From Bdellovibrionota bacterium (GTDB lineage: Bacteria; Bdellovibrionota; UBA2394): 47,567 bases of DNA. A program made the translations under genes and the position numbers. This document shows positions 1,136-42,738 of the stretch, in pieces; position 1 is the stretch's first letter; each line of letters begins with the position of its first letter. Where the stretch lies: the NCBI GenBank assembly GCA_049436045.1, contig JBMTHG010000001.1:1-47567 (forward strand), written 5' to 3'. The notes below the pieces were generated by a model. That model did no database searches. It saw only the letters and a list, made by a program, of their open reading frames with translations, and was not told where the DNA came from.

Positions 1136-2119
1136 TTAAGGGCTCACCTCTGAAGACTGAGAGCTAGACTTTCTTTTTGATGCCGGTGCCTTTGGAATTT
1201 CCTGAAACATTTCAACCCGATTTCGGCCGCGCTCTTTGGCTTGATAAAGAGCCATGTCAGCGGCCTCGATAATGCTATCAGATGTTCTTCGGTCGCTCGA
1301 ATTGTAAGAGGCTAGGCCAATAGATAAGCTGAGATGCAGCAGCTGATTTTTGACATAGAACTTTTCTTCTGAGACTTTTTGTCGAATTCGATCGCATAAA
1401 CGCTCTGCATCTTGAGGCTGGGTATCTGGAAAAATAATCAAAAACTCATCTCCTGCATAACGACCCACAAAATCAACGGAGCGCGTTGTTTCCTTTAGAA
1501 TATCAGCAATTCTTTTGAGCGTGGCATCTCCTGCAGGATGTCCGTATTTGTCGTTAATCTGTTTGAAAAAATCGATATCAATCAAGCAAAGACAAAGCGG
1601 CTTCTTATAGCGTTCGGCGCGGCTGATCTCTGTTCCCAATTGGTTCATCAAAAACCGATAGTTATAAATGTCGGTCATTTCATCTGTGAATGTCAGCTTT
1701 TGAAGCTGATCATTTGCTTTTTGAAGTTCTTGAATCAAAAATCTATTGGTCTCAAGAAGCTCATGTTTCGAACGCGCTTCACGAATGACGTTCGGTAGGC
1801 GCTCAAGATAAACTAGCTGAGTGTCTTTGACTAAATAATCATATGCCCCAAGCTTGATGGCATCGCTGGCTATAATTTCATTTCCGTGTCCGGTCATAAA
1901 AATGACTGGCGTTCGAATCTCCATCTCTTTCATTTTTTTCAAGACATCAATGCCTGAAGCTCTCGGCATACTAAAATCAAGCAGAATGAAATCAAAATGA
2001 TGAAAGCTCTCTCTGGGCGTAGGATCATCGGTGATCTCAATCTTCCAGCCCTCTTGCTCTAAGCGACACGCGGCGAGTTCTGCGTGATGAGCGTTATCGT
2101 CAATGATTAAAATTTTCAT
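1136..2119 (-). CDS. Response regulator with GGDEF (diguanylate cyclase) output, PleD/WspR-like; the active-site motif reads AGDEF
   Basis: REC residues are DD8-9, D48 (LLDFSMP), T76 and K98, followed by a coiled linker. The GGDEF domain has DIDFFKQINDKYGH, an RSVD I-site five residues before AGDEF, and YQAKERGRN. Its start overlaps the kinase stop by 1 nt. Confidence 0.85.
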   Translation of the reverse strand: MKILIIDDNAHHAELAACRLEQEGWKIEITDDPTPRESFHHFDFILLDFSMPRASGIDVLKKMKEMEIRTPVIFMTGHGNEIIASDAIKLGAYDYLVKDTQLVYLERLPNVIREARSKHELLETNRFLIQELQKANDQLQKLTFTDEMTDIYNYRFLMNQLGTEISRAERYKKPLCLCLIDIDFFKQINDKYGHPAGDATLKRIADILKETTRSVDFVGRYAGDEFLIIFPDTQPQDAERLCDRIRQKVSEEKFYVKNQLLHLSLSIGLASYNSSDRRTSDSIIEAADMALYQAKERGRNRVEMFQEIPKAPASKRKSSSQSSEVSP

Positions 2120-2952
2120 TACCGCTTCTCCCTCGGAAGAAACACGGTGAATGTTGTTCCTTTGCCCATTTGACTTCTCACGCCAATTCGACCACCAAAT
2201 GATTCAGCGATTCGCTTCACAATCGTGAGTCCGATTCCAAGGCCATCGGTGGGGCTCTCTTCAATTCGAGTAAAAGGTGCAAAAATTTTCTCGAGATTTC
2301 TCTTATCAATGCCGATGCCGTTGTCATTGATAGAGATGCGATGCCACTGGCTGTCTTTGCGATGCTTTATGATGATGACAGGATCTGCATCTTTTCGATG
2401 ATACTTCAGTGAGTTTGCGATCAGATTTAAAAAAACTTGATATAGACGAACGGCATCTCCGCGAAGAATAACATCTTCTTTGGGCAGGATAACTTTGCCC
2501 CGATTGCGTTTGATTTGCTCTGATAAAGCGAGTGTTACACTTTCTAAAATTTGAAGAAGACTTAAATCCGCAAGCTCGCTTGGATCTTGATAGAGCTTTG
2601 CAATCGATTGCAAAGAGCCGATTAAAAGATGGAGGCTGCCCACCGCTTCTCGAGAAATTTTGACATAGCGTTTTTGATCTTTCGTAAGAGGAGAGCTCTG
2701 CTCAAGAATTTTTGTGAAGCCTTCGAGAGTGAGTAGGGGTTCCTTCAGATCATGAGCTAACATATTAAACATCATCTTCCATTCTTTATCGCGCTGTTGC
2801 AGGCGATGAAGTTCTGACTTCAATTGAAAGACGAGTTTCGAGGGCGCCAAGGCTTTGCTCGGCGAGTTTTCGCGAGCACCCAAAGGGAGACGAACTTGAT
2901 GGTCTGATTTTTGCGGACTTCTTTTCGAAGCCTTTTGTCTGTTGTTTGTCAA
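2119..2952 (-). CDS. Soluble histidine kinase (HisKA + HATPase_c) with no TM segment or recognisable sensor domain
   Basis: H-box MLAHDLKEPL, N-box LNLIANSLKY, G1 DNGIGI and G2 GLGIGL are present. The TTG start at 2952 is preceded by AGGGA 7 nt upstream. Confidence 0.85.
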   Translation of the reverse strand: MTNNRQKASKRSPQKSDHQVRLPLGARENSPSKALAPSKLVFQLKSELHRLQQRDKEWKMMFNMLAHDLKEPLLTLEGFTKILEQSSPLTKDQKRYVKISREAVGSLHLLIGSLQSIAKLYQDPSELADLSLLQILESVTLALSEQIKRNRGKVILPKEDVILRGDAVRLYQVFLNLIANSLKYHRKDADPVIIIKHRKDSQWHRISINDNGIGIDKRNLEKIFAPFTRIEESPTDGLGIGLTIVKRIAESFGGRIGVRSQMGKGTTFTVFLPREKR

Positions 2953-3203: not shown

Positions 3204-4352
3204 ATGAATCAAAAAGGCGAGGCCGAGGCGGCCTCCGAAAAGCAGCCAAATTTATCAGAGAATCAGGCTCAGAACCCGTGGAGCGAATCGGCTCTGCGAG
3301 CGGCTTCTGGCGAGGCGGGCGAGGCTTTAAAACAACAAGAGCGATTGATGGCTCGGGCAAAGCTAACACCCAATTTTCCATTCGTGGGCAAAAGTGTGGC
3401 TGTGGTGAAGGTTTTCGAACTGATCGAAAGAGTGGCGAATACAGACTCAACGGTTTTGATTTTAGGAGAGAGCGGCACTGGAAAAGAGCTGGTAGCGCGT
3501 GCCCTTCATGAGCAAAGTGAGCGCAAAACAAAATCTTTTGTTCCTGTAAACTGCGGAGCTATTCCATCTGAACTTTTAGAAAGTGAGCTTTTTGGTCATG
3601 TCAAAGGAGCGTTCACGGGAGCTCATAGTTCTCGTATGGGGCGATTTAGTTTGGCTCATCAGGGAACCCTCTTTTTAGATGAGATCGGAACAATGCCGGC
3701 AAGTCTTCAAGTGAAGATTTTAAGGGCTTTGCAAGAGAAAGAGTTTGAGCCAGTCGGCGGTGCTAAGACTTTGAAGTCTGATTGTCGGGTGATTGCGGCA
3801 ACAAATAATGATTTAGAAAAAGAAGTGGCTGCTGGAAACTTTCGAGAAGATCTATTCTATCGCTTAAATGTCATTCCGATTTCCTTGCCGGCCCTTCGCG
3901 ATCGACGCGAAGATATTCCACTTTTGGTCGAGCACTTTATTGATCAATTAAATTCAAAGAAGTCTTACCAGATTGACGGCCTTTCAAAAGAAGCCATGGA
4001 TGCCTTGATTCGCTATCCGTGGCCAGGAAATGTTCGAGAGCTTGAAAACATCTGTCAGCGCCTTTGTATCCTCAAGGGTAGCGGAAGAATCGAACTCACC
4101 GATTTGCCGCCAAAAATTCTCGAATCCAAGAGCGCTGTTCCTGGAGCTTCTCCATGGGGCTCTTGGATGGCTCAGGGTTTTCCCGAAGGCGGCGTGCATT
4201 TCGACCAGCTTGTGGAAAGTTTCGAAAATGAGCTGATATTAAAGGCTCTAGAGACCACGCGATGGAACAAGAATCGGGCGGCTCAGCTTCTCAACATGAA
4301 TCGAACGACCTTGGTCGAGAAGATTAAGAAGCGAAACTTAGCGCAGAGCTAG
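3204..4352 (+). CDS. Sigma-54-dependent transcriptional activator (bacterial enhancer-binding protein): AAA+ domain plus Fis-type HTH, with no receiver, GAF or PAS domain
   Basis: Walker [16 protein letters not shown], the GAFTGA loop, Walker B LFLDEIG, and the C-terminal [25 protein letters not shown] are all present. Only about 65 low-complexity residues precede the AAA+ core. GGAGGA lies upstream of the ATG. Confidence 0.9.
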
Positions 4353-4369
4353 AAATTCTTGTAAGCTGC

Positions 4370-4393
4370 GGCAGGAGTGGTTAGGCTCCTGCC
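4370..4393 (+). promoter_or_regulatory. Perfect 8-bp stem-loop (GGCAGGAG-N8-CTCCTGCC) abutting the dcd start codon
   Basis: Read directly from the sequence. The 5' arm contains AGGAG and the 3' arm ends 1 nt before ATG 4394. No U-tract follows it. Confidence 0.4.
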
Positions 4394-4948
4394 ATGACTA
4401 TCAAAAACGACCAATGGATTACGAAAATGTCGCGCGAACATGGCATGATTGAGCCTTTCGAAGAGCGGCAAGTGCGCGAGTCAATGATCTCTTATGGAGT
4501 TTCCTCGTATGGTTATGACATGAGGGTTTCGGATGAATATAAAATTTTCACAAATGTAAACAGCACCGTGGTTGATCCCAAATCATTCGATGCTTCAAAT
4601 TTTGTGGAAGTGAGATCCGATGTTGTTCTTGTTCCCCCCAATTCCTTCGCCCTAGCGCGAAGCATCGAGTATTTTCGAATCCCTCGAAATGTTTTAGCGG
4701 TTTGTCTCGGCAAGTCGACCTATGCTCGATGTGGAATTATTTGTAATGTGACCCCCTTTGAGCCTGAGTGGGAAGGGCATGTGACGATCGAAATTTCAAA
4801 TACGACTCCTCTGCCGGCAAAAATTTATTCGAATGAGGGCATTTGTCAGGTGCTATTTTTTGAGTCTTCAGAGCCTTGCCGCGTCAGTTATAAAGATCGA
4901 AAAGGAAAGTATCAGGGACAAACAGGTATCACTTTGCCTAGAATGTAA
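4394..4948 (+). CDS. dcd: dCTP deaminase
   Basis: The 184-aa product has the typical Dcd N-terminus (...DQWI...GMIEPF) and the motifs SYGYDMRV and [16 protein letters not shown]. Confidence 0.85.
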
Positions 4949-15656: not shown

Positions 15657-17221
15657 TTCTTACTGAACTCAAAATCTCGCTCGTAATCGACTTTCGTTTT
15701 TTGCCAGATAGAATCAAACTCAGCTTCACTCCAGCCCAACTCTTTCTGAAAAACTCGTGCGACCACTTCAGCGATACTCTGTGAATTTGATTCATAATAA
15801 ACAGAACTTCGACGCCGCAAAAAATCGAGAGGCTCTAGAGCCATCTCATAATAAATGCTGTAAAGAATCTCTGAAAACAAATGGGGAAGAGATCGACTTA
15901 TTTTCTTCTGATGAAGAGAGTTTTGTGAGTCTAACTCAAGCACGTCAGAAGCATACACTCCATAGGTCTTCTCAAGTCGATCAGGGGTTGAGTTGTCTAT
16001 CAAATCTCCTTGAAGATATTTTTCATCGGTTAGACTTGGGTAAGATATCTCTAAACTTTTACAGATTGAATCGATAGCTTCTTGTGCCATTAGCCGATGA
16101 CTGGTCAACTTGCCGCCTAGAAGATGAAAGAATCCAGAGGGGTTTTCTTCAAGTTGATGCTCACGAGAAATATCGGCATTCGAGTCGGAGCTCTCAGGCT
16201 GAATCAAGGGGCGAACGGCGGCCCAAGATTGAATGACATCTTTTTCATCTAAGGGAAGCTGAAAATAATTTCGAGCAACGCCTAAGACATACTCCAAATC
16301 ATTCCTCGTGGCTTGAGAGGCATCAGGATTTTCAATGTCAGTATCGGTAGTGCCAAGATAACTGATGTTTTCCCAAGGAATCGCAAACAAAATGCGTTTC
16401 TTCTCCGGATCAGATAAAACAAAAGCTCGATCAAGCGGCAGCTTTTCTCTCGGAAAAATGAAATGAACGCCTTGAGTGAGATGCAAGCGAGGGGGAAGGT
16501 TTAGCATCTTTTTAATCTGGTCAGAGAATGGGCCGGCACAGTTTAAGACTTTTTTCGCTGTGAAGCGGTAAGTTTCGTTTTTGATTTCATCGTGAGCCTC
16601 TAGAAGAAAGCCATCATTTTGTGCAGCTCCGCTCACAAAACCCAGTCGAGAAACACAGGTGGCGCCCTCATGTATAGCGCTTTTGATGAGTTCGATCACC
16701 AATCGGTAATCTTCGGTGAAGCTATCTTGATAGATAAGAGCTCCCGTTAGATTCTCAGACTTCAGATAGGGGAATCGTCTCTTCACCTCCTCTTTTGAAA
16801 TCGATTGATGAGATTTTTTGAAAAAAGAAAACGAATCATAAAGACTAAGCCCAAGCCTGAGGAGCCACTTCGAGGGGTAGCGCCCTTTATAAGTTGGGAA
16901 GACAAAGTCAATGTCTTGAACGAAGGGAAAATAGAGTTTCTTTAAGAGCTCTCGCTCTTGAATCGCATGAAATACTAAATTGAAAGCCTTATGCTCTAGA
17001 TATCGAATTCCTCCGTGAATCAATTTTGAAGATCCCGAACTCGTGCCAGAAGAAAAATCTTTGGATTCCAGCAGCAAAACTTTTAGGCCGCGAAGCGCGG
17101 CATCGCGAGCACACGCGGCGCCAGATATTCCTCCTCCGATGATACAAAGATCCCATTCAGAGCCTTCTAGGCTACTCAGAAATTTTTCTCGGGTTCGAAA
17201 AGAAAACTCAGCGCTTTTCAT
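15653..17221 (-). CDS. glpD: FAD-dependent glycerol-3-phosphate dehydrogenase
   Basis: DLCIIGGGISGAACARDAALRGLKVLLLE...GTSSGSSKLIHGGIRYLE is present. The gene has a 4-nt overlap with ppsR. Confidence 0.85.
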   Translation of the reverse strand: MKSAEFSFRTREKFLSSLEGSEWDLCIIGGGISGAACARDAALRGLKVLLLESKDFSSGTSSGSSKLIHGGIRYLEHKAFNLVFHAIQERELLKKLYFPFVQDIDFVFPTYKGRYPSKWLLRLGLSLYDSFSFFKKSHQSISKEEVKRRFPYLKSENLTGALIYQDSFTEDYRLVIELIKSAIHEGATCVSRLGFVSGAAQNDGFLLEAHDEIKNETYRFTAKKVLNCAGPFSDQIKKMLNLPPRLHLTQGVHFIFPREKLPLDRAFVLSDPEKKRILFAIPWENISYLGTTDTDIENPDASQATRNDLEYVLGVARNYFQLPLDEKDVIQSWAAVRPLIQPESSDSNADISREHQLEENPSGFFHLLGGKLTSHRLMAQEAIDSICKSLEISYPSLTDEKYLQGDLIDNSTPDRLEKTYGVYASDVLELDSQNSLHQKKISRSLPHLFSEILYSIYYEMALEPLDFLRRRSSVYYESNSQSIAEVVARVFQKELGWSEAEFDSIWQKTKVDYERDFEFSKK

Positions 17222-19520
17222 TTAACTCATTTGCATCGGCAGCGGCGATTGTCGCCATATTCACAATTTCTTCCACAGAAGAGCCTTGTTGAAGAACATG
17301 CACAGGTTTTTTCGCGCCCAATAAAATGGGGCCAATCACATCAGCGCCAGCGAGGCGTTGTAAGAGTTTATAGGCAATATTACCCGCCGCTAAATTTGGG
17401 AAAATGAGAATGTTGGCTGCTGTTTTCAGCTCAGAAAATGGATAGCGAGCCAAAATTTCGCTCGTGACGGCCGTGTCAGCCTGCATTTCTCCGTCAATCA
17501 TGAGTTTTGGCATTCTTTTTCTGATCAACTTAATCGCCTCAATGATTTTTCTATTCTCCTCAGCGCCTGCTGAACCAAAATTTGAGAAGCTCAACATGGC
17601 CACTCGCGGTTCAACACCAAATTGCTGAACGCGCTCAGCCGCTTGCAGAGCGATTTCAGCTAAACATTCTGCGCTAGGGTTCACGTTCACCGTAGTATCT
17701 GCAAAAAATAAAACTCGATCTTTAACTGAAAGAATATAAAGACCTGCTGCAAATCGATATTTTTCTTTTAGTCCTATAATCTGCAAAGTGGGTCGAATCG
17801 TTTCAGGATAGCTTTTTCCAAGCCCAGAAACTAAGGCATGAGCTTCGCCTTTTTCTACGAGCATCAATCCAAAGTGAGTTCTTCGCTCTAATAGCTTTTG
17901 AGCTTCATATCGACTGAGCCCTTTTCTTTGCCGCATCTGGTAGAAGTCTTCAGCAAACTTTTCTCGTCTGGGGTCTCGATTGGGATCGACAATTTCTATT
18001 CCAGCTAAAGAAACGTGAACCTCAGCCGCTTGTTTCTTAATGCTTTGAGGGTCGCCAAGTAAAATGGGAGTGGCAATTCCATCTTCCACTAAAATTTGAG
18101 CCGCTCGAATAATTTTTGGAAGATCGCCCTCGGGAAAAACAATTTTTCGTTTCTGCTCTTTGGCCTTGATGATCGAGGCTCCTAAAATCTGACGAGATCG
18201 ATCGATGCTGTTTTTGAGATGGTTTCGATAATCCTTAAGGTTGATTTTCTTTCGCGCCACTCCGCTTTTCATGGCCGCTTCCGCCACAGCCGGAGCCACC
18301 CAATAAAGCGCTCTCATATCGAATGGCTTCGGAATCAGATAATCTGGTCCAAAATGAAAATGATCTTCTCCGTAGGCATTCGATACCGATTCAGGTACTT
18401 CCTCTTCCGCCAATTGAGCTAAAGCTTTCGCTGCTGCAATTTTCATTTCGTCATTAATGGCAGAACTTTCAACATCTAGGGCGCCTCGAAAAATATAAGG
18501 AAAGCCCAAGACATTGTTAATCTGATTGGGAAAATCAGAGCGACCAGTGGCAACCAAGGCGTCGGGTCGCGCTCGTTTCGCTTCATGATAATCAATTTCT
18601 GGGGTGGGATTGGCGAGAGCAAAAATGATCGGATTTTTACTCATGCCTTTAAGCATTGAGGATTTCACGATTCCTCCCACAGAGAGGCCGATAAAAACAT
18701 CCGCAGATTTCATGGCGGTTGTCAAAGAGCCCGATAGGCCCACTTGCGCGAACTCAGCCTTGAAAGGGTCGAGATCTTTTCGCTTAGAATGAACAATGCC
18801 CGCTTTGTCACAAAGAGTAATATTTTTTTTCTGAACGCCAAACTTCAACAAAAGACGAGCGCAAGCGATCGCGGCGGCTCCAGCACCACTGAACACAACT
18901 TTCACTTGCGAGGCTTTTTTCTTCGCTAGTTTTAAAGAGTTGATTAGCGCCGCGCATACGATGATCGCTGTGCCATGCTGATCATCATGAAAAACCGGAA
19001 TCTTGAGAGATTTTTTTAGTGCCTCTTCAATCTCAAAACACTCCGGTGATTTGATGTCTTCTAAGTTGATGCCCGCGACAGTGGGTTCCAGCATTTCACA
19101 AGCGCGAATAACATCGGCGGGCTCTGAAGCGTTTAACTCAATGTCAAAAACATTGATGTTTGCGAATTTTTTAAAAAGAACAGCTTTTCCCTCCATGACG
19201 GGTTTGGCGGCCAAGGGGCCAATATTGCCTAAGCCCAAGACGGCCGTTCCATTTGATACCACGGCGACGAGATTGGCTCGGCTGGTATAGTCGGCAGCCT
19301 TTCGCGGGTCTTTAGCAATGGCTAAGCTGGCGGCGGCTACCCCTGGCGTATACGCCAAAGATAAATCGCGTTGAGTAAGACAAGATTTGGTGGCGACCAC
19401 TTCAATCTTTCCGGGTTGTCTCTTACTGGATCGGCTTGTCGAGAACTCGTGATATTTTAAAGCTTCAGAGTCGGAGACCTTGAGGCTGGGTTTCGGTTTA
19501 GATTTGGATTTTTTCTTCAT
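17208..19520 (-). CDS. maeB: NADP-dependent malic enzyme (malic domain plus PTA-like domain)
   Basis: The 770-aa product has LSLAYTPGVA, FHDDQHGTAI and GAGAAA in the malic enzyme half, followed by a C-terminal phosphotransacetylase-like half. Confidence 0.9.
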   Translation of the reverse strand: MKKKSKSKPKPSLKVSDSEALKYHEFSTSRSSKRQPGKIEVVATKSCLTQRDLSLAYTPGVAAASLAIAKDPRKAADYTSRANLVAVVSNGTAVLGLGNIGPLAAKPVMEGKAVLFKKFANINVFDIELNASEPADVIRACEMLEPTVAGINLEDIKSPECFEIEEALKKSLKIPVFHDDQHGTAIIVCAALINSLKLAKKKASQVKVVFSGAGAAAIACARLLLKFGVQKKNITLCDKAGIVHSKRKDLDPFKAEFAQVGLSGSLTTAMKSADVFIGLSVGGIVKSSMLKGMSKNPIIFALANPTPEIDYHEAKRARPDALVATGRSDFPNQINNVLGFPYIFRGALDVESSAINDEMKIAAAKALAQLAEEEVPESVSNAYGEDHFHFGPDYLIPKPFDMRALYWVAPAVAEAAMKSGVARKKINLKDYRNHLKNSIDRSRQILGASIIKAKEQKRKIVFPEGDLPKIIRAAQILVEDGIATPILLGDPQSIKKQAAEVHVSLAGIEIVDPNRDPRREKFAEDFYQMRQRKGLSRYEAQKLLERRTHFGLMLVEKGEAHALVSGLGKSYPETIRPTLQIIGLKEKYRFAAGLYILSVKDRVLFFADTTVNVNPSAECLAEIALQAAERVQQFGVEPRVAMLSFSNFGSAGAEENRKIIEAIKLIRKRMPKLMIDGEMQADTAVTSEILARYPFSELKTAANILIFPNLAAGNIAYKLLQRLAGADVIGPILLGAKKPVHVLQQGSSVEEIVNMATIAAADANELNEKR

Positions 19521-19733
19521 TTTTCAACCTTAACTTTCATTCATCGCCCTTGCCCAATTCATAGCAATTTTAGATTTGGCAAGCAAAAATCAAATGTCGC
19601 TTTCGATTTATTGTCGACTCCAAGAATTCTAACCCGAAAAATGCGGGCAAAGCCATGGATTCGTTGACACTACTTTGACCAAAAAACTAATGTTTTTCTT
19701 TAGGTTAAGGATAAAGGTTTACAGGGGTTTAAG

Positions 19734-20270
19734 GTGGAAAGTTTTCAATCAGATTTTCAGCATGATGGAGCGGGGGCCTCTTCGAGTTTGAGCATGGAGG
19801 CTCGTTCGATTTTGCGCTCAATTCAAACAGAGAGCTCAAAACTGGAGCAGGCAAATTTGCTTGCTCGGTCAGATTTACACTATTTCAGAGCGCGCTTTAA
19901 TTATTATCGACTAAGTTTGTTAAGGCTATCACCCCATGAGCGCAGTGTTTTAGAGCCTATTTTGTCTCATTTTATGGAATTGATTGCAGCTCGGGAGGCA
20001 GAAAACCAAGAAAGTTTAAGCCCAAAGTTGCCGTCAACACCTCCATTTTTAGAATCGGTGGCGGAGAGACAGAAAAAAGAGCCGGTCGTTTTTGATGAAC
20101 CAGTGACAGCAAAGCCTGAGAGGCTAGAAGAGGCAAAAGTGGCCTGTGATATCTTGGGTAATCTTCAAGTGATTCAAATGGCCCTTCAGGCGCCAGCCTC
20201 TGCTTCGGGTAATCAGATTATTGCCAAGCAAATCTCTCATCTCATCCGAGAGCTTGAACAAAAATCTTAA
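19734..20270 (+). CDS. Hypothetical protein
   Basis: A GTG start has AGGGG 6 nt upstream. A TTGACA-18-TAATGT promoter-like pair lies about 60 nt upstream. I recognised no motifs in the product. Confidence 0.5.
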   Translation: MESFQSDFQHDGAGASSSLSMEARSILRSIQTESSKLEQANLLARSDLHYFRARFNYYRLSLLRLSPHERSVLEPILSHFMELIAAREAENQESLSPKLPSTPPFLESVAERQKKEPVVFDEPVTAKPERLEEAKVACDILGNLQVIQMALQAPASASGNQIIAKQISHLIRELEQKS

Positions 20271-20289
20271 AATTTTTCATGAGATTTCA

Positions 20290-20526
20290 AATGAAAGAAG
20301 TTGCAGATAGGAGGAGGAGGTCTCCTATCTGCAGCGTGAACTAGAATTTCGCATGACCAGTGGTGCGAGTGGTGTGGTGCGTTTGGCAAGGCGATATGAA
20401 AAGCCATGCGCAATTCTAGATTGTGATGGCAGCCCTAGTCCTAGTGGGGTTACCAATCATCCTCCTCAAATTTCAAAGAACAAAATTCAAATCAGGGAAA
20501 GCTTTAATAGACCCCCCTTAAGACAA
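20290..20526 (-). ncRNA. Candidate sigma-54-dependent small RNA (about 235 nt); ends are approximate
   Basis: It is bounded by a perfect sigma-54 promoter and a hairpin with a U-rich tail on the same strand. It contains a 15-bp stem with one mismatch (20405-20419 with 20341-20355) and has no ORF with a credible RBS. Confidence 0.45.
20302..20333 (-). terminator. Intrinsic-terminator-like hairpin (12-bp perfect stem, 8-nt loop ACCUCCUC)
   Basis: The sequence is TGCAGATAGGAG-N8-CTCCTATCTGCA. On the minus strand it is followed by ACUUCUUUCAUUUG. On the plus strand the tail is not U-rich. Confidence 0.55.
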
Positions 20527-20536
20527 TTCTAGAGGT

Positions 20537-20552
20537 TGCAAAAGCTGTGCCA
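20537..20552 (-). promoter_or_regulatory. Sigma-54 promoter, perfect consensus TGGCAC-AGCTT-TTGCA, with no downstream CDS
   Basis: The minus strand reads cTGGCACagcttTTGCAa, with the GG and GC dinucleotides at canonical -24/-12 spacing. It lies in the gap between convergent genes. Confidence 0.65.
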
Positions 20553-20647
20553 GATGCATGCCCTGAAAAATCTTGTAAAAATAGCGAGCCAGCTAACGAA
20601 TGGGGAGGCTGGTGTCCAGTTTTGGGGCATGAATGGGACTAAATTTT

Positions 20648-21289
20648 TTAAGCAGAGACGATCCAGCGGGCTAAGAGCATGGAGGGCGTCCAAATCAGAT
20701 TTCTCAAAATATTGATCGGCAAAAGTAAATCCATAAATATCAAGCCCAACAATAATAGAGAACCAAAGCGAGCATTCCAATTCTCGTAATTCAAAGAGCT
20801 TCGAAGAGGCAAAAGACGCGCCATAAGCGTAGACCCATCGAGGGGCCCAATCGGAATTAAATTAAAAAAGCAAAGTGCAAAATTAAGAATCATTGAAATC
20901 TGAAACAAAGAAATGAAGAAGCTCGAATAGTTTTCGCCAAAAAGACTTGCAACATTCCAGCGCAAAAGAAGCGCAAAACCAATTCCTAGAATCAAATTCG
21001 TCGCTGGACCAGCCCCAGCCACTAAAAACTCCGACCACTTTCCTCGCATCTCAGAGGGGTTGACGGGAACGGGTTTTGCCCAGCCAAAGCCTATAAAAAA
21101 AATCGCCATTGTTCCAAAAACATCGAGATGCACAAATGGATTGAGGCTCAAGCGACCGGCTCTTTGGGCCGTTCGATCACCCTGAGAGTAGGCGACGGCC
21201 GCGTGGGCCCATTCGTGAAAAGTGAGGGCCGGAATGAGCGCCGCTAACAAAAAAGGAAGTTGATCAAAGAATCCATCTCTAAAAATCAC
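20648..21289 (-). CDS. Site-2 protease family (peptidase M50) membrane metalloprotease
   Basis: HEWAHA (HExxH) sits in TM1 and NLIPIGPLDGS occurs later, in a polytopic protein. It uses a GTG start. Confidence 0.8.
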   Translation of the reverse strand: MIFRDGFFDQLPFLLAALIPALTFHEWAHAAVAYSQGDRTAQRAGRLSLNPFVHLDVFGTMAIFFIGFGWAKPVPVNPSEMRGKWSEFLVAGAGPATNLILGIGFALLLRWNVASLFGENYSSFFISLFQISMILNFALCFFNLIPIGPLDGSTLMARLLPLRSSLNYENWNARFGSLLLLGLIFMDLLLPINILRNLIWTPSMLLARWIVSA

Positions 21290-38230: not shown

Positions 38231-39289
38231 CTATTCGATTGGCTTAGCTTTCCAACGATATCGAGTAGGGCTTTCCCATTGATAAGGCAAGTTTTGTCCC
38301 TTTTGCAGAAAAAAATGATTTGTTTCATTGAGTTCTCGCAGTTGGGTCGGATATTGACCAAATTCTGCTCGATAGAGTTCTAAAGTTTGCGAAAGTTCGT
38401 TGGGAATCTCGTAGAAGGCTTCGCGATGAAGTTGATTATAGAAAGCGAGCAAGTTCAGTATTCCTCCAAAGACGATTAAGACGCTCGACACAATCAGGAC
38501 ATCGCGCAAATACTTCGTGGGTCTCAGTGAGGCATTGGCGGATCGAGTTCGTTTGTCAAGTGGCTCGATGAGTCCACGATCCCAAAGCTCGATGAGCTGG
38601 CGGAGCACAAGAAATTCTCCCTGATAGGAGCTTCGAATTAAATCCTCGACACTATTCTTTCCATTGCAGAGTTTCAGAATGTCTCTTTCCATTTCTTCTT
38701 CTGGGCTAAATGATGCCTCGTTGGATTCAAATTGCAGGGCCAGATCAATAATGTCGGGCGTGGAAAATTGCTCATTTGAAGTTTTTGACTTCAACACAAA
38801 AATTCGTTTGGAAGACTCTATTCGCCTTTGTATTGATTGCCATTCCTGATCTCTGTGTTGAGCTTCTTTTAATAAGCTCTCAATTTTCGTGGGATGAAAG
38901 TAACTTATTTCTGAATCTTGTGATTCATTCGGTTCTTGAGCCTGAGGAACGAGCTCAAGATTCGTCCAAAAGAAAATTCTAAAAAAAACTTCAAATCGAT
39001 CAATCTCGAAATATCGCATGAGCCGCTGGGTTTGATCAGCGTTCAGCCTCAAACAGATTTCAATAAAGTCTATCCAGCCCTCATGGGGAGAGATGGCATT
39101 GAGCGGCGGGAGTTCTATGGATGAAAGTTTTTCAAGGCGCTCTATACTGCGATCTAGAGGTCGATAGGCGTAGAGAAAGCGACCTTTTCGAAGGCAGATA
39201 TAGGCTAAACCTTCGGAGGCCCGAGCTTCGATGAATCCCGACCATTTTTGCTCTGCGAGTTCCTCAAAAAAATGAAAAATCTTTTTCAT
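38231..39289 (-). CDS. Hypothetical protein with one C-terminal TM; the N-terminus is loosely DUF4388-like
   Basis: It is ATGA-coupled to the upstream gene. The N-terminal WSGFIEARASEGLAYICLRKGRFLYAY and the TM VLIVSSVLIVFGGILNLLAF are present. Confidence 0.55.
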   Translation of the reverse strand: MKKIFHFFEELAEQKWSGFIEARASEGLAYICLRKGRFLYAYRPLDRSIERLEKLSSIELPPLNAISPHEGWIDFIEICLRLNADQTQRLMRYFEIDRFEVFFRIFFWTNLELVPQAQEPNESQDSEISYFHPTKIESLLKEAQHRDQEWQSIQRRIESSKRIFVLKSKTSNEQFSTPDIIDLALQFESNEASFSPEEEMERDILKLCNGKNSVEDLIRSSYQGEFLVLRQLIELWDRGLIEPLDKRTRSANASLRPTKYLRDVLIVSSVLIVFGGILNLLAFYNQLHREAFYEIPNELSQTLELYRAEFGQYPTQLRELNETNHFFLQKGQNLPYQWESPTRYRWKAKPIE

Positions 39290-40983
39290 ATCGATGATGC
39301 CTTTTTAACTCCCCAAAGCGCGTTAAAAGTTAAGAGAAGCAATCCAAAAATGAGGAGGCTAAAAGATGTTCCATAAGCCAAAAACTGTGGAAGCTGCTGA
39401 AATCCAAAAAAGTTTAAAACCTCACTACGCCATAGTGAGGATAGCCCACCCCAAAGAGTCAAATAGACCAAAAGATTGAGAGCTAAGGCCCTTCCATAGG
39501 AGCCTTTCTCTAGCTGGTAGGCTCCTGGAACAATCCAAATCCAAAACTGAATCAATCTTTTTAGCTGTTCCTTATAAAAAAGCTGTTGATTCTTCCATTG
39601 CTTTCTCTCAGCGAGATGGAGTTGATCTCGCTTTTCGAGCACATGGATACTTGTCGTGCTGAGAAACTCATCATGGGTATTTGTTGCTCGTCCAGTTTCT
39701 TGGCAGAGCCCGCTTGTTTTTTGAGACAAGAACAAGAAGATCAGAAAAATAACTAATGGTAGAAAAAATAAAATCATCTGAATCAAAAACGAGCTTATCG
39801 AAGCTGACCTCCAAAGTTGACTGAAGCCTTGCAAAAAATCTTTGGCCGCTTGAAGAAATGCATCGCCCCATTCAATATCAGTTTTCGGCGGAAGGATTCC
39901 GGCGCTTGTCGCCAAACTTCGGTCGTAAAGTTTTGAATAGGTTTCGTGTCCTAACTCATTCTTCATCTTGTCAAAAAGATCTAAGTTCTGAGATTTGAGA
40001 TAGAGCTGAGAAAGATTGAAGCTTATGATTTCATTTTTTCCATATTGCGCTTCTATTTGATGAAGCTGATCGACCAGCAGACGCGCAGGTTGGTATTGAG
40101 CATCGATCACAAATTTCATCAAAGAAGAGTTGAGGGAGTCAGGAGCGCTTTGATTGAGTCTCGAGGCGAGAAGATATTGATGATTCCAGAAAGACCACTG
40201 AGCTTGTTCTTCAGGTTTCAATTTCAGCAAAAGGTGCTGCGGATATTCTAAGCGATTTTTGCCAGAGTTCATCGCCTCTTTGAGACTAACAAAACTCAAG
40301 TTTTCATATAGGGAGCCCCAAAAACTAGCGGTCAAAATAAATCCAAGAAGAATCAGGGATAATCGCCGATAAAATCTTCGATTTCTTGAATATAACATCG
40401 CTGTCAGGCAGAAAAGAAGGCAAGCAAACAAAAATTGTTTAGTCATGATTCCCAAAATCAAAGCTCCTGTGAGTAGAAAAAGCCCGCCGAAATGCGTAGA
40501 AATTTTTAAGAGTCGATTTAAATCATTCATGATCGAAGCTCGCCAGATAAAAAGCTGAAACAAGCAGAGCGTAAGCACAGAAATCAGTAGAATTGGAAGC
40601 AGTCGGTAGAGAATCTCCATGCATGTTCTGAGGGCATCGATGGGACGATGAATCAGCTCTCGAATCAATGATTGAAACGAATTTAACACAAGTTGCCATT
40701 CGAAGATCGATTCAGAAAGAAGATGGCGAATTCCCAAAAGATGAGTCGAGACATCACCTAAGGGGGGTTCAATTTCTTTTTGCTGAAGAATCTGCCACTG
40801 AACCCATTCTGAGGTTTGGCGAAAGTCATTTTTTCGATCAAGAGGTTCGCCAAGTTCAAAGGATTTCAATGAGTTTTGAAAATCCTCTCGACGCTCTGAT
40901 TGGCCCAAAATGGAGCCAAAAGCAGACAAAGATGGGACAGCCAACAGAGCGAGAATTCCGAAAATTTTAAAAAACCTAGGCAT
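39286..40983 (-). CDS. Polytopic membrane protein, function unknown
   Basis: ATG 40983 gives the signal-like N-terminus MPRFFKIFGILALLAVPSLSAFG. The track start at 41037 is a GTG that overlaps the sigma-54 promoter on the other strand. Confidence 0.6.
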   Translation of the reverse strand: MPRFFKIFGILALLAVPSLSAFGSILGQSERREDFQNSLKSFELGEPLDRKNDFRQTSEWVQWQILQQKEIEPPLGDVSTHLLGIRHLLSESIFEWQLVLNSFQSLIRELIHRPIDALRTCMEILYRLLPILLISVLTLCLFQLFIWRASIMNDLNRLLKISTHFGGLFLLTGALILGIMTKQFLFACLLFCLTAMLYSRNRRFYRRLSLILLGFILTASFWGSLYENLSFVSLKEAMNSGKNRLEYPQHLLLKLKPEEQAQWSFWNHQYLLASRLNQSAPDSLNSSLMKFVIDAQYQPARLLVDQLHQIEAQYGKNEIISFNLSQLYLKSQNLDLFDKMKNELGHETYSKLYDRSLATSAGILPPKTDIEWGDAFLQAAKDFLQGFSQLWRSASISSFLIQMILFFLPLVIFLIFLFLSQKTSGLCQETGRATNTHDEFLSTTSIHVLEKRDQLHLAERKQWKNQQLFYKEQLKRLIQFWIWIVPGAYQLEKGSYGRALALNLLVYLTLWGGLSSLWRSEVLNFFGFQQLPQFLAYGTSFSLLIFGLLLLTFNALWGVKKASSI

Positions 40984-41031
40984 TTTTAATAGTTTAAGGG
41001 CTCTTTCACAGATCAACCAAGGCTTAATTTT

Positions 41032-41047
41032 TGGCACGACATTTGCA
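41032..41047 (+). promoter_or_regulatory. Sigma-54 promoter, perfect TGGCACG-ACAT-TTGCA
   Basis: It matches the full TGGCACGNNNNTTGCW consensus and lies 36 nt upstream of ATG 41083, in a divergent intergenic region. Confidence 0.7.
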
Positions 41048-41082: not shown

Positions 41083-42738
41083 ATGTGGATTAAAAGCTAC
41101 ATTTTTAGTTTTGCCTGGCTTTGCCTCTCGGTCTCGGGACTGTGGGCTCAAAGCCCTTATCGCATTGCCACTTTTGGAAGCTTATCCAATGACTCCTGTA
41201 GTGATTTTCTTTCCTATTTGGGCGAAGCTCTTTCTCGAAGTTCGATTCGGCATTTAAAGCGATCGGAGCCTTCGTCTTTTGGCGATGACCGAGCGCGGTT
41301 TGGGCCTTTTGCGATCGCCAAGTCAAAAGAGACAGCTCGCTATGTCTCTCAGCCTGAGTCGGGGCGCTTAGTTCATTACATTCAGATTCTTCCTGGAAAG
41401 CTTAAGTTTTTGAGATCAAAGCTCACAGCCGAAGAAGTGAATATTTTGCTAAATCAAATTAGAGAGATCATTATTCGATCGGGCCTAATTGAAACGGGTG
41501 AGAGTGATGCTATTTTTGGATTTAAATCAGGTCGTTATAATTTGAATGCGAGTCAGGAAAATTCAGAAGAGATTTCAAAACTCATCAAGGCGTCTGAAAA
41601 TATTTTTCGAAATCTTCAAAAAAATATTTTTGAATCTCCACATTTACAAAATGGACCTTTTAACTGGCAAGTGGATCGCTTGTTAGCTCTTGGCTCTGGT
41701 GAATCTGAAATTGAAGCTGTCATTGCCTCTCGCTTTTCAACAGAGAGTTTTGTTAGGTTTTCAGAAGTTGAAGCTAAGGTCAAAGCGGCTGTTCTTGAAC
41801 TGCGAGACTTATCAAGTCGATTAAAGAATATTCTTCGATCGAATGTGCATACTTCGAGGCTCATCGCAAATGACCAATTCGAGAAATCATTTTTTGATAA
41901 TTTTCGACAATTTCAGAGTCAGGAAGATTTTATAGATAGTCTTCGCTCTAAAGGCCTGACGGAGGGTGAAGCTGAAGAGTTGGCTGGGGTTGCCTTTCGA
42001 TTTTTTTCTTTAGTCGATAAATTTATTCCTGGAACTCAGTTTTCAAATGATTCGATTGAGCAAGTTTTTGAAGATCAAACACCACGCGATCGAAGCCCTA
42101 GCGAAGATACGAAATCGATTTTGATTGCTGATGTAAAAGGTGCTGGCTCTGACATTCTTTCAGAAACTTGGTACTCGCTTGAAGCCGCTATCGCTCCGCA
42201 CATGGCTTCTAGAGAAAATTCTTTTGATGTCAAAGCAGTGATAAGAGAAATTGACATTAGCCCAGCGATTCAACGACTGCAGTCTTCACTCGATCGAGCT
42301 TTAGAGACAGTTAAAAAAATTGAAGGGGAGAATCTGATTGATCATTGGATCACAGGAGATGAAGTTCTATTTTTCTTAAAAGATGAATCAAGAGCTCATC
42401 GAGTCTCTTCATTAGAGTTAGGCAATGTGAGATTGGTCGAAGAGAATCAATCTTCAATCTCGGAGCTTGCTCCACAAGATCGAGCTTATTTTCGAGAAGT
42501 GGTCGAGCGAAGTCATAAGTTTCTTGAAAAGCAATACCCAGACCTCCCATTAAAGATGGTGAGGGCAGACTTCCAAAATGATTTATTCTCTATTCAGATT
42601 TCTTTACAGAATTCAGCGGATAAAGATCGACCAAGCGATGAACAGCTGGAGGCTATCAAAATTGCCATTTCAAAAGATCTTCGAGAGGGCTTTTCAGATT
42701 TTCAGCTTCTTAATCGTCTTCAGGTCGATTTTTTCTAA
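41083..42738 (+). CDS. Exported 551-aa hypothetical protein
   Basis: The signal peptide is MWIKSYIFSFAWLCLSVSGLWA. I could not securely recognise any domain. Confidence 0.65.
   Translation: MWIKSYIFSFAWLCLSVSGLWAQSPYRIATFGSLSNDSCSDFLSYLGEALSRSSIRHLKRSEPSSFGDDRARFGPFAIAKSKETARYVSQPESGRLVHYIQILPGKLKFLRSKLTAEEVNILLNQIREIIIRSGLIETGESDAIFGFKSGRYNLNASQENSEEISKLIKASENIFRNLQKNIFESPHLQNGPFNWQVDRLLALGSGESEIEAVIASRFSTESFVRFSEVEAKVKAAVLELRDLSSRLKNILRSNVHTSRLIANDQFEKSFFDNFRQFQSQEDFIDSLRSKGLTEGEAEELAGVAFRFFSLVDKFIPGTQFSNDSIEQVFEDQTPRDRSPSEDTKSILIADVKGAGSDILSETWYSLEAAIAPHMASRENSFDVKAVIREIDISPAIQRLQSSLDRALETVKKIEGENLIDHWITGDEVLFFLKDESRAHRVSSLELGNVRLVEENQSSISELAPQDRAYFREVVERSHKFLEKQYPDLPLKMVRADFQNDLFSIQISLQNSADKDRPSDEQLEAIKIAISKDLREGFSDFQLLNRLQVDFF

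Follow-up and report, generated by a model that had tools for sequence, protein, structure and literature searches.

Why should an exact sigma-54 promoter stand in an intergenic gap that holds no recognisable gene? The question is posed by a 47,567-nucleotide (nt) stretch of DNA from a Bdellovibrionota bacterium (contig JBMTHG010000001.1 of assembly GCA_049436045.1; the whole stretch is called the window below), in which two convergent genes, 19734-20270 on the plus strand encoding a 178-amino-acid (aa) protein and 20648-21289 on the minus strand encoding a peptidase M50, are separated by the gap 20271-20647. A first-pass annotation had described this gap, giving its length as 378 nt where it measures 377 nt, and had proposed that an orphan sigma-54 promoter drives a structured non-coding RNA of ~235 nt from it. 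The features on which it built (promoter, open reading frames (ORFs), stem, terminator and complementarity) all lie where it had placed them, and the comparative evidence presented here backs its core claim. We conclude that the gap very probably contains a genuine, conserved structured RNA gene and that this gene is likely to be sigma-54-dependent. The full reading that we favour, with rather more modest confidence, is that comparison of the homologs points to a signal-dependent, trans-acting sigma-54 small RNA (sRNA) that represents a new family of a Bacteriovoracaceae subgroup and pairs with ribosome-binding sites.

The promoter is the starting point of the argument. The minus strand reads TGGCAC-AGCTT-TTGCA at 20552-20537, which matches the -24/-12 consensus exactly with a spacer of 5 nt and carries the GG at -24 and the GC at -12 in the TGGCAC-N5-TTGCW arrangement. 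Simple arithmetic predicts ~0.05 exact matches to TGGCACN5TTGCW by chance in the 47.6-kb window and there are 2; when up to one mismatch is allowed, 4 matches are found compared to 1.4 expected. The second exact match, TGGCACGACATTTGCA at 41032-41047 on the plus strand, precedes by 36 nt the ATG of an ORF of 551 aa (41083-42738, plus strand), which has no Pfam or NCBIfam match and is probably a genuine gene under sigma-54 control; this match also extends into the start of a divergent and likewise unannotated 583-aa ORF (39286-41037). From the geometry of the intergenic promoter, transcription is predicted to start near 20526-20524 and to yield an RNA of ~240 nt in the window (~235 nt transcript) and of 230-360 nt in relatives. 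At the other end a terminator scan confirmed the hairpin that the annotation had reported, a perfect 12-base-pair (bp) stem with 6 G-C pairs and the loop ACCUCCUC, followed by a T-rich tail, the hallmarks of an intrinsic terminator. The T-rich tail is found on the RNA strand in all homologs and includes 7 consecutive T in one group of relatives, clade B, while no T-run is present on the opposite strand.

If the gap contains a gene, relatives should have kept it, and this can be followed across genomes whose surroundings have diverged. A scan with the M50 protein as query, in which each species was represented by a single genome, identified Bacteriovoracaceae metagenome-assembled genomes as the nearest to the window, at 49-58% protein identity. 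Three loci (L001, L002 and L003) have not kept the order of genes beyond M50, yet each possesses one exact sigma-54 motif on the M50 strand, followed by ~220 nt that include the blocks seen in the window: GAGGAG, CCCCCAAGG, CUGCCA, ACGCCAAGCCUUGCCACACACCAC and a terminator whose stem sequence differs and whose UCCUCCUCC loop is retained. In both L001 and L003 a homolog of the 178-aa ORF (40-43% identity) converges on the element. Further loci were drawn from the DNA around members of the 178-aa family and from one metagenome scan (6 loci), which brought the homolog set to 14 distinct complete copies, with the truncated L002, cut by the locus end, and L060 in addition; the 178-aa homolog P0004 (63% identity) was left out of the DNA comparison. 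The motif TGGCA[CT]-N5-TTGC[AT] is found in 14/14 loci at the same relative position, 230-360 nt upstream of the terminator loop, and the DNA flanking it does not align between the 14 loci. Promoter and long hairpins, the absence of which from close relatives had been named in advance as a reason to drop the proposal, are thus both present.

The pattern of sequence conservation singles out the 3' part of the element. From the GAGGAGG block to the tail, the window is 98.9% and 97.8% identical in nucleotides to its two close relatives L048 and L051, respectively; for the same pair of comparisons the genes for the 178-aa protein, M50 and maeB (a malic enzyme-PTA fusion) show 81-89% nucleotide identity, other intergenic DNA shows 74-85% and the variable 5' part of the RNA 89% and 75%, respectively. 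The 178-aa protein itself is 89% identical in L048 and 83% in L051. The covariance model described below detects no second copy of the RNA gene in the window, and the DNA examined contains one copy. The M50 side of the locus has been repeatedly rearranged among relatives; in L061 an IS200/IS605-type Y1 transposase gene (4022-4543, plus strand) lies between the promoter region of the RNA and M50, and the RNA gene is intact.

The predicted transcript has a constant order of parts: a variable 5' part, an invariant UUUGAGGAGG block and three hairpins, H1, H2 and H3, the last of which carries a CCUCCUCC loop. In the window the variable 5' part covers 20474-20526 on the minus strand, and its length between the predicted transcription start site and GAGGAGG ranges from ~20 to ~160 nt between homologs. 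It is followed at 20460-20467 by the Shine-Dalgarno (SD)-like block GAGGAGGA, embedded in (U)UUGAGGAGG with an A/U-rich sequence upstream; in an alignment of 14 sequences A8, G9, G10 and G12 of this block are invariant and G7 and A11 nearly so. H1 (20424-20459) contains the invariant CUGCCA (20432-20427) in its 3' arm, and at its tip a C-rich run pairs with an AGG/GGG run. H2 (20341-20419) is a long helix of 15-20 bp that encloses a large, CA-rich and G-poor apical loop (20359-20401), in which the invariant GCCUUGCCA (20392-20384) precedes CACCAC repeats; GCCTTGCCA-A is invariant here, and the loop is ~45-55 nt long, ~70% C+A and mostly unpaired in minimum free energy (MFE) folds. H3 (20302-20333) is the terminator hairpin with its anti-SD-like loop ACCUCCUC at 20321-20314, and the tail ACTTCTTTCATTT occupies 20289-20301. 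Across all copies the invariant columns comprise the AGG-G core of the GAGGAGG block, CUGCCA, GCCUUGCCA-A and the CUCC-CC core of the CCUCCUCC loop, with the terminator loop reading CCUCC(U)CC throughout; in the MFE folds these blocks are predicted to be unpaired or to lie at helix ends.

Between the invariant blocks the helices change in sequence and keep their pairing. A covariance model seeded only from three near-identical, ungapped copies of the window type finds all 14 copies, at E-values of 1e-63 to 4e-7, and does not report the truncated L002 copy. In a control set of 389 kb it has no match in 43 loci of other phyla, its matches there being the copies of the element in L053, L055 and L060. 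Within the alignment made by the model 94.9% of cells are paired, against 34-47% in slid controls, in which the partners are displaced by 1-3 columns; both sides have changed in 31 of 40 pairs, and the covariation score is 0.637 against 0.05-0.12 for the slid controls, with the observed values reached in none of 500 shuffles. The covariation alignment, a check that the annotation itself had suggested, accordingly shows strong covariation of the long stem and the terminator: all 17 pairs of H2 have changed on both sides with 90-96% of cells paired, and 10 of the 12 pairs of H3 covary at 100% pairing. The 15-bp stem with one mismatch formed by CTAGAATTGCGCATG and CATGCGAAATTCTAG (20419-20341), as described for the window, is part of both the MFE fold and this covarying helix. 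On a plain MAFFT alignment RNAalifold scored 9 of 11 terminator pairs as compensatory, around the invariant loop, and recovered the terminator only; such alignments scramble the arms of H2 because these share no sequence between genomes. In independent MFE folds, H2 and H3 occur in the same order and positions in all 14 copies and, by our reading, H1 in most of them. H1 is mostly invariant and covaries weakly, and the distant clade falls into insert columns there; because of this invariance and poor alignment we regard H1 as a probable rather than a demonstrated helix.

Two finer structural proposals of the annotation did not survive the comparison. Its GGGG/CCCU hairpin at the 5' end is lost in L051 and is therefore not conserved, and the third CTAGAATTG copy at the start of the transcript, which was thought to offer H2 an alternative partner, reads CTCAAATCG in L048 while the competing H2 arm is unchanged, so that the alternative CTAGAATTG pairing appears to be coincidental. 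The complementarity of GAGGAGGA (20467-20460) to UCCUCCUC (20318-20311) is real. As a general anti-termination switch operated by GAGGAGG it was rejected: in clade B the complementarity is confined to the loop and at most 1-2 stem pairs. Covariation has no purchase on a GAGGAGGA/UCCUCCUC switch, since both partners are essentially invariant.

It could be argued that there is no RNA gene at all. The gap might instead encode a small protein, for example in an opposite-strand ORF of 59-72 aa or in a short frame preceded by GAGGAGG, or it might be no more than a long spacer with two terminators and palindromes that arose by chance. The fold z-score is indeed unimpressive, at -2.1 for the sense and -2.4 for the antisense strand, as expected for DNA palindromes; a value of only about -2 that is similar on both strands speaks for chance, and folding energy alone is weak evidence. 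What lifts the element above chance is the comparison: the promoter, both long helices, the GAGGAGG block and the CCUCCUCC loop are found again in 14 distinct loci. The strand can also be told from the pairing: G.U pairs number 42 and A.C pairs 9, and 94.9% of cells are paired on the promoter strand compared to 88.3% on the opposite strand; the excess of G.U over A.C implies that the helices favour the promoter strand.

The small-protein version draws on gene calls and on the SD-like block. Automatic annotation called an opposite-strand ORF of 72 aa in L048-L050, as well as short ORFs over the element in L063 and L064, and GAGGAGG is followed by an AUG in ~6/10 lineages with a spacing of 0-7 nt. 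Against this, the frames are inconsistent. We found no conserved reading frame on either strand among the homologs, in line with the claim that no credible coding sequence lies downstream of the promoter; from one genome to another, ORFs over the conserved blocks switch between frames 0, 1 and 2, and they start mostly with TTG or GTG and range from 20 to 93 codons. The spacing from CUGCCA to CUUGCCA is 42, 44, 49, 47, 60, 43, 46 and so on nt, with indels that are not multiples of 3, and the peptides behind GAGGAGG vary from 5 to more than 60 residues, have no common sequence and disagree in their stops. Frame inconsistency thus ruled out both the small ORF behind GAGGAGG and the opposite-strand ORF of 72 aa in L048-L050. 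As for the window, two of the sense ORFs that start with ATG have the 9 and 14 codons ascribed to them, and the third has ~46 rather than 47. The substitutions in the helices are compensatory and not synonymous, the 3' domain is 98-99% identical and thus well above its coding flanks, and the promoter is kept in all 14 copies. The absence of any RNA gene is consequently extremely improbable, and judged from its reading frames the element is non-coding. The short ORFs of 50-72 aa called over the RNA gene in public assemblies (L048 3614-3832, plus strand; L063 3591-3776, minus strand; L064 3566-3718 and 3906-4082, minus strand) are probably spurious, because their frames are not conserved.

How would such an RNA be made, and how would it act? 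Sigma-54 RNA polymerase would bind the -24/-12 element. The sigma-54 holoenzyme is silent without an ATP-hydrolysing enhancer-binding protein, and expression should therefore be all-or-none and signal-dependent, the RNA being made only once an activator is switched on. Transcription would stop at the H3 hairpin to release a mature RNA whose 5' part evolves fast and whose 3' domain, made up of three hairpins, is strongly constrained; this domain would present four invariant surfaces: an unpaired GAGGAGG, the CUGCCA in H1, GCCUUGCCA with CACCAC in the H2 loop and CCUCCUCC in the terminator loop. The RNA may act in trans through these unpaired surfaces. The CCUCCUCC loop corresponds to the anti-SD sequence of 16S rRNA and should therefore pair with the GGAGG ribosome-binding sites of mRNAs, where it would block initiation; the CA-rich loop might add specificity by pairing with G/U-rich flanks, and the internal GAGGAGG could either mask the loop within the RNA or serve as a second interaction site. 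That the RNA works by pairing with ribosome-binding sites is a tentative proposal, to which we would give slightly less than an even chance.

The window encodes one sigma-54 activator (3204-4352), a generic enhancer-binding protein without an N-terminal receiver or sensor domain; it has no NCBIfam equivalog at the cutoff and no assignable subfamily, and its neighbouring genes are uninformative. It is divergent from a histidine kinase gene (2119-2952, minus strand), beyond which lies a REC-GGDEF diguanylate cyclase gene (1136-2119, minus strand). Nothing in its domains, subfamily or neighbours ties this gene to the RNA promoter. Candidate activator sites upstream of the promoter are possible and appear to be clade-specific. 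In one clade CCCCA/CCCAT motifs are concentrated at -130 to -30 (16 compared to 4.5+-2.3 in shuffles); in the window they lie at ~20600-20640, 55-90 nt upstream of the promoter, L054, L063, L064 and L058 have them in the same region, and in the window and L054 the copies are ~21-22 nt apart. Clade B is without them. L062 possesses a 9-bp inverted repeat, GATGTCGCA-N5-TGCGACATC, and L002 two GCGACA copies.

Several observations weigh against the reading that we favour. With respect to the gene itself, the model alignment is fitted to the structure and its pair counts are inflated as a result; judging from the slid controls and the independent folds, the effect of fitting is small and the covariation signal real. 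The terminator tail of the window is interrupted by a C and makes a weak U-tract. A search of the 215 nt upstream of the promoter for k-mers and gapped palindromes yielded no activator-binding motif common to all copies. With respect to the mechanism, GAGGAGG and CCUCCUCC are both invariant, and covariation does not distinguish between intramolecular pairing, pairing with mRNA and protein binding. The seeds of known Gram-negative sRNAs are usually 5'-proximal and do not lie in terminator loops. The terminator loop forms its best duplex in the window with GGGGGGAGGA, the unusually strong SD sequence that precedes the sigma-54 activator gene at 3204 (-22.5 kcal/mol, an extreme value relative to shuffled sequences); this counts in favour of the mechanism, but an anti-SD loop would pair with any strong SD, so that the match is not specific. 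The leader of maeB was considered as a target of the CA-rich loop, with which it can form an interrupted duplex of 18 bp in the window (-22.4 kcal/mol), and was rejected when conservation was taken into account: across 10 loci the maeB duplexes are no better than those of shuffled loops (z of -0.7 to +1.8 in nine and -2.2 in L066), and even L048, closely related as it is to the window, shows erosion of the complementary motif. The complement of the invariant loop core has its only exact match in the window within the element itself and, with up to 2 mismatches, 13 matches compared to 9.8 expected.

Invariant surfaces could alternatively be read as protein-binding sites. According to such an explanation the RNA is a sponge or decoy whose invariant blocks bind an RNA-binding protein that is titrated upon sigma-54 activation, with a CsrA-type protein as the candidate for the GGA/AGG motifs and a dimeric protein for the CUGCCA and CUUGCCA blocks. 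There is precedent for RNAs of this kind: GlmY, CrcZ and the CsrB/Rsm RNAs act on proteins, and GlmY and CrcZ are sigma-54-dependent protein decoys. Invariance without covariation fits recognition by a protein, UGCCA is present in two of the invariant blocks, GAGGAGGA is located 20-30 nt upstream of the conserved AGG at the tip of H1, and AGGR motifs reach about twice the number found in shuffles (76 compared to 40+-5 over all copies). Each RNA, however, has only 2-8 AGGR motifs, the excess stems in part from the GAGGAGG block and a terminator arm, and sRNAs that sequester CsrA/RsmA typically expose from 7 to more than 20 GGA motifs. The conserved AGG in clade B is moreover paired with the C-run at the H1 tip and does not lie in a loop, no Rfam family of the CsrB/Rsm type matches at E<=10, and both the anti-SD-like loop and the 70% C+A loop are left unexplained. 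We consider a sponge unlikely.

The gene on the other side of the terminator is the most constant companion of the RNA. The 178-aa gene has homologs at 34-99% identity and is directly convergent with the RNA gene in 12/14 loci, another gene being interposed in L062 and L066; it is always divergent from maeB. The block composed of a DAO-type FAD oxidoreductase gene, maeB and the divergent 178-aa gene (17208-20270) is kept in nearly every locus. L056, L057 and L067, the most distant of the 178-aa loci, have the 178-aa homolog and, in the place of the RNA gene, a gene that resembles flagellin, contains FG-GAP repeats and has a simple terminator (~3560-4360 in L056 and L057; 3691-4320, minus strand, in L067). 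In L064 a gene with flagellin-N, FG-GAP and flagellin-C parts adjoins the RNA gene. The 178-aa protein has no sequence match in Pfam, NCBIfam or the PDB, and its family comprises 33 clusters among 5.8 billion proteins, none annotated. The AlphaFold model is confident and all-helical, with a predicted local distance difference test (pLDDT) score of 82, and a Foldseek search against the PDB returned generic helical bundles only, at E>0.7. The position of its gene, fixed with respect to maeB and in most loci tail-to-tail with the RNA gene, makes the protein a candidate functional partner of the RNA.

Such an arrangement invites an explanation in cis, whereby overlapping transcripts of the two genes regulate each other through duplex formation or polymerase collision. 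The convergent order in 12 of the 14 loci persists even where the M50 flank has been replaced, and the strand on which the hairpin could terminate matters too: since its U-tract is on the RNA strand only, with no T-run after the hairpin on the 178-aa strand, transcription of the 178-aa gene may continue into the RNA gene, or, with a U-tract as weak as that of the window, the RNA may extend into the 178-aa gene. The gene that separates the two in L062 and L066 speaks against this proposal, as do L056, L057 and L067, which have the 178-aa gene and no adjoining RNA. An 18-nt spacer separates the mature RNA from the 178-aa coding sequence, with no overlap, and antisense action needs neither invariant loops nor a covarying long helix nor a CA-rich loop. 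We judge such a cis-acting role improbable.

Does the element belong to a family already known? Rfam 15 has no gathering-level match in the RNA region, and none of its sigma-54 sRNA families (Qrr, GlmY/GlmZ, CrcZ, Pxr and NrsZ) matches at E<=10. The one gathering-level Rfam match in the window is a full-length 6S (SsrS) RNA gene (RF00013, 30907-31087, minus strand, 73.4 bits). Full-text literature searches returned no sigma-54-dependent or comparable sRNA in Bdellovibrio or Bacteriovorax and no description of regulatory RNA biology for the Bacteriovoracaceae branch. On the comparative evidence, the element is best described as a new RNA family within the known class of sigma-54-dependent bacterial sRNAs.

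The nearest analogue is Pxr of Myxococcus xanthus and the myxobacteria, an RNA of 108 nt with an apparent sigma-54 promoter and three predicted stem-loops including a terminator, encoded directly downstream of its sigma-54-dependent regulator nla19 (PMC5568312). Both are stand-alone intergenic genes with apparent sigma-54 promoters, three stem-loops and synteny with one neighbour, and the hosts of Pxr, a lineage with a complex life cycle, were formerly grouped with Bdellovibrio as deltaproteobacteria. The RNA described here differs in its length (230-360 nt), in the distance to the only activator in the window (16 kb) and in its neighbour, the unannotated 178-aa gene; to our knowledge neither an anti-SD terminator loop nor a CA-rich loop has been reported for Pxr. 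The Vibrio Qrr1-5 RNAs, the textbook case, are transcribed by sigma-54 with the activator LuxO and act by base pairing on mRNAs (PMC2680268; 10.1101/2021.07.01.450815). Feedback of Qrr on its own regulators is known, and the match between the terminator loop and the SD of the activator gene in the window resembles it, as a lead only. The Qrr RNAs are ~100 nt long, multi-copy and Hfq-dependent with 5'-proximal seeds, whereas the RNA here is a much longer molecule, single-copy in the DNA examined, whose candidate surfaces are loops of the 3' domain and which has no Rfam match to Qrr.

For the H3 loop the closest analogy is found further afield, in the CiaR-dependent csRNAs of Streptococcus, which carry a CCUCCU hairpin loop complementary to the SD. 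The best sub-threshold Rfam match of the element is in fact csRNA (RF02379; 26.3 bits against a gathering threshold of 57, E = 0.26, window 20259-20332), with the CCUCCU loop in register; its score lies below threshold, and the element is therefore not a csRNA member. csRNAs are ~90-nt Firmicutes RNAs with a CiaR promoter, whereas the hairpin here is the terminator of a predicted sigma-54 transcript in Bdellovibrionota. C-rich hairpin loops in the 3' domain of Staphylococcus aureus RNAIII, including a terminator hairpin, and in RsaE/RoxS pair with SD regions of several mRNAs and block translation, which provides the precedent for a seed in a terminator loop; phylum, promoter type, size and sequence all differ from the RNA here, there is no homology and no Rfam match. 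GlmY and CrcZ, which titrate proteins in a sigma-54- and activator-dependent manner, are the model for the sponge discussed above. The repeated motifs of CrcZ are A-rich, and GlmY is a mimic of GlmZ, whereas the repeated elements here are CA-rich or consist of UGCCA and GGAGG/CCUCC, again with no Rfam match. The combination of an SD mimic, an anti-SD terminator loop and a CA-rich loop mounted on a long helix is unusual.

This combination raises one further possibility, that the RNA acts on the translation machinery itself. Once a sigma-54 activator is switched on, for instance as the predator passes from one stage of its life cycle to the next, the SD mimic (UUUGAGGAGG with its A/U-rich leader) and the mimic of the 16S 3' end (CCUCCUCC) would bind 30S subunits or SD sites globally and thereby reprogramme translation; a dedicated protein, perhaps the co-conserved 178-aa helical protein, would be recruited through the CA-rich loop and the UGCCA blocks. 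Bdellovibrio-like predators hunt as free-living cells in one phase of their life and grow in another. We regard a global action of this kind as highly improbable.

Under the reading that we favour, a trans-acting sigma-54 sRNA that pairs with ribosome-binding sites, the new family would offer a handle on post-transcriptional control in the Bacteriovoracaceae, its promoter and structure being defined and its four invariant surfaces amenable to mutagenesis. The few sigma-54-dependent sRNAs known so far would be joined by one from an independent lineage, and spurious ORF calls in metagenome assemblies would be corrected; the SD mimic, paired as it is with an anti-SD loop in one and the same RNA, suggests a mechanism worth testing in these organisms.

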